The notes below the pieces were generated by a model. That model saw nothing but the letters and a program-made list of their open reading frames with translations. It did not search any database and was not told the DNA's origin. The translations under genes and the position numbers were made by a program. Shown piece by piece: positions 19,017 through 48,243 of a stretch of DNA of 64,000 nucleotides. This DNA comes from an uncultured bacterium (lineage in GTDB: Bacteria > Babelota > Babeliae > Babelales > Vermiphilaceae). Numbering within the stretch: position 1 is the first letter of the stretch; the number at the start of each line of letters is the position of its first letter. The DNA is taken from contig OY970212.1 in assembly GCA_963713925.1 (NCBI GenBank), positions 224,001-288,000 of the forward strand. Reading direction: 5' to 3'.

Positions 19017-19078
19017 ACTACCCCAAACGAGCTATCTGCCGCCAAAGGCTATATCGGCACAGGCGTATGGGGGCTCAA
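19017..19078 (-). repeat. Family A element with a degenerate Family B unit in its loop
   Basis: Minus: GAGCCCCCATACG[CCTGTGCCGATATAGCCTTTGGCGGCAGA]TAGCTCGTTTGGGGTAGT. Confidence 0.55.
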
Positions 19079-19121
19079 ATAAACCAAATAGATTACGTTT
19101 TCATAGCTCAGGAGGTTTCCC

Positions 19122-19595
19122 ATGCAAACCTTAACTGCTTTTTGGCTCATTGCAACCCTGGTGTTTTTAATCTTAGAAATTGGCCATCCTAACTTATTTT
19201 TTTTCATTTCATTTGCAGTCGGAAGTTCGGTGAATGCTCTGATTATCTATCTGATTGGAGATATTTCAAGCGCCTCACAAATTGCCATCTTTTTTCTGAG
19301 TTCTGCGATTGCTTTTCTGCTTTTGCGCAAATTGGCATCCCGAGTTAACGCGCGGCTCACCAAGACCAATATGTATGCTCTTGAAGGTCAAATCGGGCAG
19401 GTGACCAAACAGATTGACCCTCATTCATTTGGTCAAGTGAGAATTGTAAATGAACTCTGGCTTGCGCGTACGACTCATGAGCGATCCATCGGTGTAGGAT
19501 CGTATGTCCGTGTGACTCGAGTGCAAGGTGCGCATGTTGTTGTTGATGTCGTCGAAAATCATTTTCATCGAGATCATACTTTAAAAACAAATTAA
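19122..19595 (+). CDS. NfeD-family membrane protein
   Basis: 3 TM helices plus OB-fold GQVRIVNELWLAR; upstream of SPFH gene. Confidence 0.85.
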   Translation: MQTLTAFWLIATLVFLILEIGHPNLFFFISFAVGSSVNALIIYLIGDISSASQIAIFFLSSAIAFLLLRKLASRVNARLTKTNMYALEGQIGQVTKQIDPHSFGQVRIVNELWLARTTHERSIGVGSYVRVTRVQGAHVVVDVVENHFHRDHTLKTN

Positions 19596-19661
19596 TAATT
19601 CATAACCTGAAACATCAAACATGTAAGCTCTGCTGAAATGTTTGATCTAGAGGAGTTACTC

Positions 19662-20621
19662 ATGTTCTTCTTTTCACCAATGCTCATCGTCGGAGCAGCT
19701 TTTGGCCTCTTTGCCATTATTTTGTTATTGAAATCAATTGTTTTGGTCAGACAGGCGGAAGCCGTCATTATTGAACGGCTTGGTCGTTATGATCGCATCA
19801 TTGGCCCCGGTATTCATATTGTGGTCCCATTCTTTGAACGAGCTCGCTCAGCCACCTGGAGCTTCGTGAAAGCTGATGTGGAAAGCAAACGTTATTACCG
19901 TTCAACACAAACAATCGATCGCATCGATTTGCGTGAAGCTGTGTATGACTTTCCAAAACAAAATGTTATCACCAAAGATAACGTGACAATGGAAATCAAC
20001 GCATTGCTCTATTATCAAATCACTGACCCTCGTGCAGCTGTGTACGAAGTGTCAAACCTTCCGGAAGCAATAGAAAAACTCACACAAACCACCTTGCGTA
20101 ACGTTATCGGATCGATGGATCTCGATTCATCGCTTGTTTCTCGTGATGAGATCAACGAAAAACTACGCCTTATTCTTGACGAAGCGACTGATAAATGGGG
20201 CGTTAAAGTGAATCGTGTTGAGTTGCAGGAAGTCAATCCACCGGCAGACATTCGTCATGCGATGGAAAAACAGATGCGCGCAGAACGTGATCGCCGTGCC
20301 GTTATTCTCGAAGCAGAAGGTATGAAACGCGCAGCAATCTTGGAAGCTGAAGGTGTTCAACAAGCGCAGGTTTTACGTGCACAAGGCGAAGCCGAAGCTC
20401 GTATGAAATTGGCCGATGCACAAGCTGAATCAATTAAGCTTATTCAAAAAGCATCCCCATCTGGAGATCCACTTCCATATCTCATTGCAATGGAATACAT
20501 GAAAGTATTGCCTGAAATGACCAAAGGCAAAGATGACAAGATGATTCTTATGCCGTATGAAGCAACTTCGTTGGTCGGGTCAATTGCAACGATCAAAAAG
20601 CTGTTTGAAAATCAGCAGTAA
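19662..20621 (+). CDS. SPFH/Band 7 (paraslipin/stomatin-like) protein
   Basis: ERLGRY, IDLRE, QNVITKDN, AMEKQMRAERDRRA. Confidence 0.92.
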   Translation: MFFFSPMLIVGAAFGLFAIILLLKSIVLVRQAEAVIIERLGRYDRIIGPGIHIVVPFFERARSATWSFVKADVESKRYYRSTQTIDRIDLREAVYDFPKQNVITKDNVTMEINALLYYQITDPRAAVYEVSNLPEAIEKLTQTTLRNVIGSMDLDSSLVSRDEINEKLRLILDEATDKWGVKVNRVELQEVNPPADIRHAMEKQMRAERDRRAVILEAEGMKRAAILEAEGVQQAQVLRAQGEAEARMKLADAQAESIKLIQKASPSGDPLPYLIAMEYMKVLPEMTKGKDDKMILMPYEATSLVGSIATIKKLFENQQ

Positions 20622-20640
20622 AAATATCTTATAAAATCAA

Positions 20641-20680
20641 AGAGGACGTTTGGTTTAGATCTAAACGTCCTCTCTTTTTT
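20641..20680 (+). terminator. Intrinsic terminator
   Basis: AGAGGACGTTT...AAACGTCCTCT plus T tract; second copy at 23543. Confidence 0.75.
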
Positions 20681-20712
20681 GAACGAAGCTGATTTTGGTT
20701 TTCAAGCTTCTA

Positions 20713-45765: not shown

Positions 45766-45798
45766 GATTATCTAATACTTTCATGTAATGTTTCCCTT

Positions 45799-45862
45799 AG
45801 GGTAGCCCCGTGCGGCTTGTCACGCCATAGTTTTAACGTAGGCGGATAAAGCATGGGTTTAA
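45799..45862 (+). repeat. Family A element carrying a Family B unit (45816-45846)
   Basis: GCCCCGTGCGG[CTTGTCACGCCATAGTTTTAACGTAGGCGGA]TAAAGCATGGGTTTAAT. Confidence 0.7.
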
Positions 45863-45875
45863 TTAGGGGACGTAC

Positions 45876-47444
45876 ATGAATTTTCAAAAAAAGACACTAT
45901 ATATAATCTTATTTGCCAATTTCTGGTCACTCACTCGAGCCCATGATACAGCTCCTCATATTATTTTCTTGAAAGCAGCCTTTGACAAACTGATAGACTT
46001 CTCACTTTCGGATCAAAAAAATATCATCGTAACTTCTGATTCAACGCAAGAAAAAAAAGCGGAATCAACACCTTCTGATGAACAAAACAACGTTAATGTG
46101 CCGGATAGCAACGCGAATGAGGCGTTAAAAAAGGCGACTGTCTCGGGAAATATTGTTGAATCAAGATCGAACGGGCAAGGCGCCATACGAAATAATAAAA
46201 AGTGGACAGTCATGGTCTATATAGCGGCTGACAATGATTTGCGTGGATTTGCCGCACGCAACATTAAACAAATGGCTGCCGTTGGATCTAATGAACGCGT
46301 TAATATTCTCGTGCACCTTGATATTAAAATTACAGGAAACAAAAAAATTACGCGTCGATATTATATTGAAAGTGGAAGAATCAATCACATGAACGACAAC
46401 GATCCATCAACTGCTCGCATGGATAGTGGCAATCCCGAGACGCTCATCTCATTTGTCGACTGGTCAGTGCGCAATTATCCGGCAGAAAAATATTGTCTTA
46501 TTTTATGGAACCATGGCACCGGGCCCATAGACCCCGGTCAAGGAAAAATAGTAAATCCTTCGAATCTTTTTACGCTCAATCCAGTGACTAACAAATGGGA
46601 ATTAGACCGCTCTGTTGGTTTTTTAGAATACGTTTGCAATTCAAATACCAAAAATCGTGGTATTGCCTGGGATGACACGACAGGCAATTATTTGACCAAT
46701 CAAACAATGGAACATGCATTAAAAACGATAAAAGAAACAATATTGTCGGGTCAAAAGCTTGCTCTGATTGGTTTTGATGCGTGTCTTATGTCAACGATCG
46801 AAATAGCTAATATTGTGAAAAATTACGCTCACTATTGCGTTGCTTCACAAGAGGTTGAAATGGGAACCGGCTGGAAATATAACGACGTTTTAGCTCCCTT
46901 TTTAACGCAGGATATGGATGAAGAATCATTTGCCGCGCATATCGTGCGGGCGTATGAAAAAACCTATGAAAAAATAAATGATGATTTCACGTTAAGTGCC
47001 GTAAACCTGAAGCTTGTTGATCATCTTGAGCATGCGATAGATAATCTTTCTCAATCATTATTGCACGCGTTAACCATGCAACGTAATCTGAGCGTGGCTC
47101 GATGGATAAGAAATAGTAAAAATACTGCGACGCGATTTGATGAGCCGAGTTATATTGATCTTCACCATTTACTCCATAATCTTGCAAATCAGGTCAACAC
47201 AGTTGAATTTCTTTCCGGACACGATAAACATGGTAGTATCAATGATATCAATCAGCACATTAATGCATGTTTACATCTTATTGAACAAACTATTATTGAA
47301 AACACTGTAGGACCGAATGTTTCGCGAGCGCGGGGAATATCTATTTACTTCCCGGATAAAAAAGTTCATCCATCTTATAAAAAATGTAATTTTGCCCTGC
47401 AAAACAATTGGCACAACTTAATCTCAGCACTCACAAAAGCCTAA
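45876..47444 (+). CDS. Clostripain-family (C11) cysteine peptidase
   Basis: WTVMVYIAADNDL, LWNHGTG, GFDACLM, GISIYFP. Confidence 0.9.
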   Translation: MNFQKKTLYIILFANFWSLTRAHDTAPHIIFLKAAFDKLIDFSLSDQKNIIVTSDSTQEKKAESTPSDEQNNVNVPDSNANEALKKATVSGNIVESRSNGQGAIRNNKKWTVMVYIAADNDLRGFAARNIKQMAAVGSNERVNILVHLDIKITGNKKITRRYYIESGRINHMNDNDPSTARMDSGNPETLISFVDWSVRNYPAEKYCLILWNHGTGPIDPGQGKIVNPSNLFTLNPVTNKWELDRSVGFLEYVCNSNTKNRGIAWDDTTGNYLTNQTMEHALKTIKETILSGQKLALIGFDACLMSTIEIANIVKNYAHYCVASQEVEMGTGWKYNDVLAPFLTQDMDEESFAAHIVRAYEKTYEKINDDFTLSAVNLKLVDHLEHAIDNLSQSLLHALTMQRNLSVARWIRNSKNTATRFDEPSYIDLHHLLHNLANQVNTVEFLSGHDKHGSINDINQHINACLHLIEQTIIENTVGPNVSRARGISIYFPDKKVHPSYKKCNFALQNNWHNLISALTKA

Positions 47445-47456
47445 TGCGGCGTATTT

Positions 47457-48143
47457 TTATCTCGGGGTATATTTAAATTTTCGTGACGCATCATCATAAT
47501 CTTTATCTGTAAGCGGTTCCCCTCTTTGCTCGCGCAATGCTATCAGCTTGTTTGCCTCTTTGATGATATCACCCACAAGCTCTCGAGTGTCTTGGCTATA
47601 ACAGACAGAAATACTCGGCCAATTTTTTTGCAAGATAGGGGACTGCATCCACATGAAAAAAATGTTGAGCCATACATATGATCCCGTTAAATCATATTTT
47701 GCAGTAGATAAAAAGTCTTCCATCGCCTGATAGATTTTGTTTGAAAGATACATCTCGAGTATTTGTCTTTTGAGAGGATCGTATGTTTGCGGCTCCCCCA
47801 GAGCAACGCCTTCGGCGCGAAAATATTTATCCGGATACATGCTTTTAAATAAGAAAAAACTTTCAGGGAAATCTTTTTGCATCTCGTCTTGCGGGCTAAT
47901 CCATTGTCGCTGTGTTATTTCCAGTGTGTCATACGCGAGACGATGATTTGCCGTTTGCGTTGTGCTGGTAACGTTGAAATAGATACTGTAGGTGATCAAT
48001 ATCACGGAAAGCACGCTCAAATATGAGATGATGAGCTTAAACTGTTCAACGCCGGGCAGCGTAAATTTGCGGATTATGAAAAAGCCGGCTGCCGCCACCA
48101 ACGCGACTATGATTAATACTATTTGACCTCCGGTCAAGATCAT
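47457..48143 (-). CDS. Membrane protein, paralog of 48244..48912
   Basis: 2 TM; shared TQRQW, SNKIYQ..EDFL, WLNIFFMWMQSPIL. Confidence 0.75.
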   Translation of the reverse strand: MILTGGQIVLIIVALVAAAGFFIIRKFTLPGVEQFKLIISYLSVLSVILITYSIYFNVTSTTQTANHRLAYDTLEITQRQWISPQDEMQKDFPESFFLFKSMYPDKYFRAEGVALGEPQTYDPLKRQILEMYLSNKIYQAMEDFLSTAKYDLTGSYVWLNIFFMWMQSPILQKNWPSISVCYSQDTRELVGDIIKEANKLIALREQRGEPLTDKDYDDASRKFKYTPR

Positions 48144-48160
48144 AACATTCCTTTCTCTTA

Positions 48161-48243
48161 TTTGGGGCCCCCACATGACCTTCACACCTGCGGACCCGTC
48201 ACGCCGTAGCCTATTGGCGTAGGCGGAAAGTGTGGGGTATAAT
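48161..48243 (+). repeat. Family A element carrying a 33-bp Family B unit (48195-48227)
   Basis: GGGGCCCCCACA...[CCCGTCACGCCGTAGCCTATTGGCGTAGGCGGA]AAGTGTGGGGTATAAT. Confidence 0.75.

Follow-up and report, generated by a model that had tools for sequence, protein, structure and literature searches.

Two hairpin families in a Vermiphilaceae genome

The DNA window considered here is a 64,000-nucleotide stretch (C1:224001-288000, from contig OY970212.1, called C1 below) of the genome of an uncultured bacterium of the Vermiphilaceae, a single contig of 1.32 Mb. The named homologues of one window protein belong to Dependentiae/Babeliales (∼60% identity), which makes the organism Dependentiae-like. 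It carries two families of short hairpin repeats, termed A and B, and units of B are found inside A. On the minus strand, a degenerate B unit of 29 nt and 20.1 bits (19035..19063) lies within an A hairpin whose left arm is also degenerate (19019..19076). The remaining A hosts are on the plus strand. A long-class A hairpin (26671..26738) holds a 33-nt B unit (26690..26722) at a G-A^A step, where the caret marks the junction; its nearest twin, an empty A copy at 23771..23803 (plus), equals it in length after B removal. A short-class A hairpin with a decayed left arm (45802..45859) encloses a 31-nt B unit (45816..45846), and a further A hairpin (48164..48240) contains a 33-nt B unit (48195..48227) together with ∼18 additional bases that end like the B 3′ end. 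All four of these B units lie between A arms and are co-oriented with A, as the initial annotation of the window had described. Also as described, the only other B copies form a nest near 33486. This nest has three levels, all on the minus strand: an inner B unit (33521..33553) at a G-T^A internal loop of a middle B unit (33500..33566), itself in the tip loop of an outer B-like hairpin with a different stem (33487..33583). An empty A copy at 9722..9753 (plus) is the twin of a B-filled A hairpin at genome position 489411 and is 1 base shorter than that site after B removal. Rfam gave no match in the window.

B is non-coding and, when unnested, 31–37 bases long. It begins with C-Y-TGTC, continues with a stem of four bases, an internal loop of three, a short inner stem and a variable tip, and returns to G-G-A. 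The ends are fixed, with C-Y before the TGTC tag on one side and G-G-A at the stem foot on the other. TGTC is the tag consensus, the final two bases of which are able to pair with the terminal G-A (56/58 and 53/58 canonical). A two-arm weight-matrix scan of the genome yielded 66 matches above 19 bits, compared with 0–2 in three shuffles and 2 in the reversed genome. Ten matches were removed (one 16S match, six with a tRNA-end-variant ending and three overlapping or outer calls), and hand additions and re-cuts led to a final set of 58 units.

Family A consists of a GGG-Y-CCC left arm, an inner hairpin of ∼12 or ∼21 bases and a TGGG-T-R right arm. Strict empty copies number 164 in the genome and 0–1 in shuffles; a relaxed catalogue was noisy (63–77 short matches in shuffles) and was dropped in favour of the strict one. 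A interiors occupy ∼3% of the 188 kb of intergenic DNA. Of 100 long A copies, 64 carry paired G-N-A motifs, of the kind seen in the B internal loop, on the A strand and 7 on the other strand.

B enters A in a single orientation

Inspection by eye assigned 29 of the 58 B units to A hairpins (∼6 of which have one decayed or displaced arm), 9 to B or B-like hairpins, 4 to tRNA-end cassettes and 16 to sites elsewhere. A blind arm test placed 22 of 58 B junctions within co-oriented A arms, whereas random intergenic points pass in 1.4% and 1.5% of cases for the two orientations, or ∼3% together (binomial P = 4e-19); among the 22 are a false call (257553) and two units that form the inner level of B-in-B-in-A nests. 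Twenty junctions passed in the same orientation only, none in the reversed orientation only, and two in both, because the A arms are nearly palindromic. By eye, the orientation of B in A is 29 of 29 co-oriented and 0 reversed. The initial annotation held that B units sit in the loops of A hairpins, always in the same relative orientation. Genome-wide, the enrichment over random intergenic DNA and the orientation rule (29:0) were borne out; a location always in A was not, as A hosts account for only half of the copies. What stands is the strand-specific and repeated insertion of B into the hairpins of another repeat.

The orientation of B is independent of the replichore. A replichore bias was looked for and is absent: 17 of 29 B-in-A units are on the leading strand (P = 0.46), as are 30 of all 58, and a replichore rule was dropped after three origin positions had been tried without any bias. 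A transcription rule was likewise unsupported, with 17 units tandem sense and 11 antisense by crude open reading frame (ORF) calls and all gene contexts occupied. Since neither replichore nor gene context sets a rule for B in A, the orientation is set by A.

Copies outside A include B units in frame inside long open frames, mostly read from the complementary strand as charged low-complexity stretches (C1:85613, 125340, 580782, 970183, 1271356 and 310035). An exception to co-orientation is provided by another element, a tRNA-end-type hairpin that lies reversed in the B stem with an apparent short duplication (C1:580845 and 1201973).

Insertions are separate and junctions polar

The B-in-A copies are separate insertions with near-exact ends, because B removal restores ordinary empty A copies without target duplication. 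After B removal, 23 A sites could be scored, and for 22 of them the best empty A copy did no worse than the best other filled A copy (size-matched mean chance 0.68). The B-removed lengths fit both A size classes, and all 44 unnested B sequences differ. Several empty twins of filled A hairpins are exact and three are 1 base longer, an occasional one-base slack. Target duplication of at least 2 bases is absent from 53 of 58 junctions in this genome and from 83 of 95 outside it. Microhomology or template switching at the B 3′ end was considered and rejected, as exact B removal leaves a full loop in most twins. Contigs of one weakly matching DNA sequencing run, in which 14 of 30 bins were covered, contained no joints; no RNA run was listed as a match.

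Junctions in A lie, by eye, in the tip or in either the first or the second internal loop, and they are polar. A purine^A/T step is found at 135 of 221 pooled junctions (∼57 expected), and G-N^A at 15 of 29 B-in-A junctions (1.7 expected), with 0 for the reverse complement. The extruded, or cruciform, loops invoked by the initial annotation are not supported: many insertion sites are internal loops and not the hairpin tip. Furthermore, both strands would be exposed in a cruciform, and insertions in both orientations would then be expected.

B beyond this genome and beyond A

B matches ∼3100 stretches of a species collection, spread over many phyla, and was matched in 62 of 201 genomes of the phylum and in 21 viral stretches. 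Family A is expanded in the present genome only (67 pattern matches versus 0–2 in 200 phylum genomes), and its left arm was seen by eye in 0 of 20 metagenome B copies picked for an A-like right arm. The proposal that B is a parasite of A therefore fails; B is widespread without A, and its hosts include other repeats, tRNA T-loop copies and genes. Outside this genome, inspection by eye often places B within unrelated repeat families. Some of these we take to be GTAG-type repetitive extragenic palindromes (REPs), with family names assigned by eye. The best empty-site control found is an interrupted gene in a relative (genome G151), where a GIY-YIG gene is split by B at a codon boundary and its product has neither extra nor missing residues relative to the protein of the present genome.

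Within B-like hairpins outside this genome, B shares the strand of its host in 7 cases and takes the opposite strand in 0. A loose pattern applied to 167 outside junctions identified 14 head-to-tail and 1 tail-to-tail neighbours, some of them doubtful, and 0 head-to-head pairs flush with B. A perfect stem of at least 6 encloses 15 of 95 outside B sites, compared with 3.6 in shuffled flank pairs, and 11 of 91 B sites in the species collection pass an inverted-repeat score (null 3.0). Hairpins are favoured by B, not required.

A clade of small GIY-YIG genes is linked to B-type hairpins

Four small GIY-YIG genes, at loci L001–L004, are present in the genome. L001 encodes 80 amino acids, lies behind tRNA-Thr and has B-type hairpins flanking it; L002 and L003 are flanked by a third hairpin family, C, and L004 by CGTC-type hairpins. 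The only Pfam domain of note in the L001 protein is PF01541, NCBIfam gave no family, and among solved structures the closest in sequence are UPF0213 proteins and, at a weak level, SLX1. The protein retains Tyr, Tyr-x-Gly, Arg, His and Glu at what we take to be the GIY-YIG positions, placed in part from mutants of the nuclease SsnA.

The B-type hairpin is linked to one clade of these 80-residue proteins. It lies at most 250 nt upstream of 21 of 30 L001-homologue loci, taken from 136 genomes with a match, versus 1 of 157 control windows; the relaxed test behind this count was chosen after a first test, requiring a perfect stem near the GIY-YIG genes, had given at most 9 of 30. In the present genome L001 has the hairpin, whereas L002–L004 lack it. 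A homologue occurs in 17 of 19 phylum genomes with at least 3 B arms versus 118 of 181 others (P = 0.04, with kin not independent). At two loci of relatives, L189 and L192, a duplicated tRNA 3′ end follows directly behind the GIY-YIG gene and holds B in its T-loop. B may be the right end of an autonomous element. The GIY-YIG cassettes of relatives (L189, L192 and L196) continue with a tRNA 3′-end duplicate that runs from the T-loop on, with B or a B-like hairpin exactly in the loop, and L192 comprises two such cassettes in tandem.

Other enzymes were also sought. The genome search returned neither a reverse transcriptase (PF00078) nor a DUF559 nuclease. Of a Y1 transposase there is a remnant in a 74-codon frame, matching 30 of 121 profile positions and without an adjoining B, and three intact IS110 genes have ends that, by eye, are unlike B. 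Three near-identical IS110 copies (L239–L241) have a CGTC-type hairpin in their common left flank; in the same flank a tRNA-end-type B-like hairpin is inserted in two copies and missing from one.

Family A as a mobile repeat, and family C

Family A, too, is mobile, with copies nested in A, B and family C (e.g. C1:1224975, the C1:821000 region and L003:1400-1480). A flanking duplication of at least 5 bases accompanies 25 of 164 A copies versus 2–7 in shuffled pairs, a property in which B is unlike A. Inside C, A is co-oriented 22 to 0, although these copies are not independent. Reversed A is found within a few bases of the C hairpin 5′ end, 7 versus 0 by pattern, with one of the 7 at the C 3′ end; the sites are at 1720-1790 in the window and at C1:312664, 847019, 975701, 1220119 and 1227686. 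The C 5′ ends are where an Ssn-type cut by the L002 and L003 enzymes would be expected. Inverted copies of C flank these two 94-amino-acid GIY-YIG genes (L002:1400-1830 and L003:1400-1830) in a gene-between-hairpins layout. In the window, C is seen at 1747 and as a back-to-back pair near 17819/17855 (17800-17900). Empty A copies between tandem genes are sense in 50 cases versus 25, and 96 of 164 lie on the leading strand (P = 0.035). Unrelated to these repeats, the window also holds four short paralogous ORFs at 12982-14490, with a common start region and a 244-base direct repeat.

Comparison with described systems

The initial annotation knew of no described system of this kind. However, nested REPs are mentioned by Di Nocera et al. 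(2013, PMC3733652), and the targeting of REP symmetry axes by insertion sequences (IS) is described by Tobes and Pareja (2006, PMC1525189). The nuclease SsnA cuts one strand only, a few bases upstream of its hairpin and with one-base shifts among homologues, and the authors of that study hypothesise an IS-like origin (Chenal et al. 2025, PMC11893778). Like Ssn and its NTS/SRM repeats, the B system pairs a small gene for a single-domain GIY-YIG protein with a tagged hairpin that flanks it and is also dispersed in many copies. The B 5′ end, two bases before the tag, also falls about where SsnA cuts and is consistent with such a cut. The stem of B, unlike that of the SRM, is bulged and contains a paired 3-base internal loop; unlike Ssn, the linked protein sits at tRNA 3′ ends and is 31% identical to the CGTC-flanked GIY-YIG protein of the same genome. 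In the sections of the Ssn paper cited here, only cutting is treated and the word ‘nested’ is absent.

According to Di Nocera et al. (PMC3733652), REPs are regularly inserted in other palindromes, the cases given being H. neapolitanus CGTC-1 dimers, A. variabilis GTAG-15 and T. roseum GTAG-23. No empty target was found for two of these nests, and orientation and junction rules fall outside the part of that study cited here. B resembles the CGTC-tagged REPs in the TGTC sequence variant of its tag, its short hairpin and some in-frame gene copies. CGTC REPs have an 8–9 bp stem, a 4–5-base loop and a CCA tail and mostly form head-to-head dimers, whereas B is a monomer with an interrupted stem, a variable loop and no tail. 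B therefore works like an Ssn-type or CGTC-type repeat yet fails both the SRM pattern and the CGTC stem definition.

For the IS that target REPs (IS1397, IS621, ISPa11, ISPpu9/10, ISPsy8 and ISRm22; PMC1525189), another repeat is likewise the landing site, in some cases at the symmetry axis, and ISPa11 inserts without duplication and on one strand. These elements are kilobases long, encode their own transposase and use a fixed site, whereas B has 31–37 non-coding bases, several positions and many hosts. REP/RAYT (TnpA-REP) systems (PMC8266576), as proposed for B, involve short non-autonomous repeats that are hairpin-guided and of the single-strand type, and B resembles IS200/IS605 and REP/RAYT elements in being strand-specific and free of duplication. 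REP/RAYT systems have a GTAG tag, an HUH enzyme and cut sites of a fixed C|T type, none of which is present for B, which is linked to no HUH Y1 transposase and shows a weak purine^A/T preference in place of a fixed target word. Finally, miniature inverted-repeat transposable elements have terminal inverted repeats and a target duplication, whereas B lacks the duplication and bears an unpaired 5′ tail of 4 bases. The nesting of one repeat in another and the use of REPs as IS targets have been published before. In the main texts of a mostly open-access literature, no account was found of a 31-base unit that is tied to a GIY-YIG gene and nests with polarity and without duplication, nor any paper on Dependentiae repeats.

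How B may move

We propose, with about even confidence, that B is a non-autonomous mini-hairpin, inserted independently and likely moved as single-stranded DNA by a small Ssn-like GIY-YIG nuclease encoded by genes that bear this hairpin too. SsnA is the model for how B would be bound, cut and joined and for the cause of the strict strand choice. The nuclease would bind the folded B strand and cut ∼2 bases before the tag, because SsnA cuts a few bases before its own hairpin, while the B 3′ end would be set at the stem foot. The freed strand could then be joined into a cut in an unpaired, purine-rich step of another folded strand, presumably by the nuclease together with host ligation or repair. 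Orientation would be one way because A has G-N-A loops on one strand only, with the motif as in the B internal loop. A would be the main B host in this genome through its abundance, which no other such hairpin matches, rather than through any need of B for A. A bolder version, in which the 80-residue GIY-YIG protein is a transposase for single-stranded mini-hairpins, releasing B and splicing it into strands that fold with G-N-A loops, is tentative and in our view rather doubtful.

Several points weigh against the proposal. To our knowledge, no GIY-YIG enzyme has been shown to join DNA. For SsnA, the cited sections demonstrate only cutting, and the published degenerate SRM pattern matches 0 of 58 B units (PMC11893778). 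No mobilising gene for A was found in this genome, and a GIY-YIG gene lies within 500 nt of only 1 of 122 outside B loci. Structural signals are modest: covariation in the B stem is slight, the A strand exceeds its complement in stability by only 0.7 kcal/mol, and the folding energy of the A and B composites in the window is no better than that of shuffles (z −0.2 to −1.7). The inverted-repeat score is passed by 0 of 51 sites in relatives (null 1.7), 1 of 16 of the ‘elsewhere’ sites of this genome and 0 of 12 viral sites. Tip insertions of B in B occur at Y^T, contrary to the purine^A/T preference; they are still co-oriented, which points to recognition of a folded strand. The strand asymmetry of A for the junction sequence, 3:1 to 4:1, gives 29:0 at a probability of only 0.0002–0.002. 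Junction polarity and A strand asymmetry hence explain the direction of the bias, not the clean 29:0, and a putative strand-specific structure recognition must be added.

The main rival, which we consider unlikely, is that each host repeat has a strand-specific nuclease of its own and B is patched into the nicks that this enzyme leaves, so that it, and not the enzyme of B, chooses site and strand. It would account for the 21 of 28 B-in-A junctions that lie 4–7 bases beyond the C run of A. However, this fixed distance also corresponds to the first unpaired bases after the stem. The reversed A copies just outside the family C 5′ end (7 versus 0), where an Ssn-type cut would fall, the presence of C around two other GIY-YIG genes and the frequent occurrence of B in unrelated repeat families elsewhere (by eye) would also suit host nicking. 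A purine^A/T junction common to unrelated hosts and genes would not, and nothing nuclease-like was seen by eye among 17 ORFs between neighbouring A copies. A clearly smaller chance is given to an HUH transposase (IS200/IS605- or RAYT-like) that acts in trans by single-strand peel-and-paste of B. The chemistry of these enzymes is strand-specific and joins DNA (PMC8266576), the B tag lies 5′ of the hairpin without duplication, and a Y1 transposase remnant exists. Nonetheless, the remnant is short (30/121 positions) with no B beside it, B sites show neither a fixed target word nor a replichore bias, and the search in PMC3733652 found no tyrosine transposase flanked by CGTC-type repeats.

Survival rather than targeting could also shape the pattern, if B inserted broadly, selection purged most copies and those in dispensable A persisted. 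With 16 of 58 B units outside A and B, several of them in frame in genes, filtering is seen to operate, and the hairpin enrichment is weak in relatives. Even so, survival explains neither the junction motif nor 29:0 across divergent, tandem-sense and tandem-antisense contexts, and the small share of intergenic DNA within A further makes this improbable. An IS110-family recombinase with a bridge RNA might place B in A as such enzymes do with REPs, where IS110-type elements insert without or with short duplications (PMC1525189); three intact genes are at hand. Their element ends are unlike B by eye and the B targets have no long fixed common sequence, which leaves this mechanism very improbable. 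Least probable of all, and largely refuted, is a single A-with-B composite that arose once and was then copied as a unit. The narrow range of junction distances from the A arm would fit a common origin, but the hosts cover both size classes and many stem types and are closer to empty A copies than to each other. Moreover, two filled A hairpins have an empty tandem neighbour (395751 and 589610), and junctions occupy three distinct loop positions.

Outlook

How CGTC/TGTC-type repeats spread is left open in the cited parts of PMC3733652 and PMC11893778. With dozens of insertion junctions that have empty twins, a strict rule on strand and a single intact candidate enzyme, this genome makes the question testable. 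If the enzyme also joins DNA, it would represent a new way of moving non-coding DNA and a possible tool for single-strand insertion. The bolder version, with the GIY-YIG protein itself as the transposase, would, if true, constitute a mobility route without HUH, DDE, recombinase or reverse transcriptase chemistry and would give rise to Russian-doll repeat nests in many phyla.

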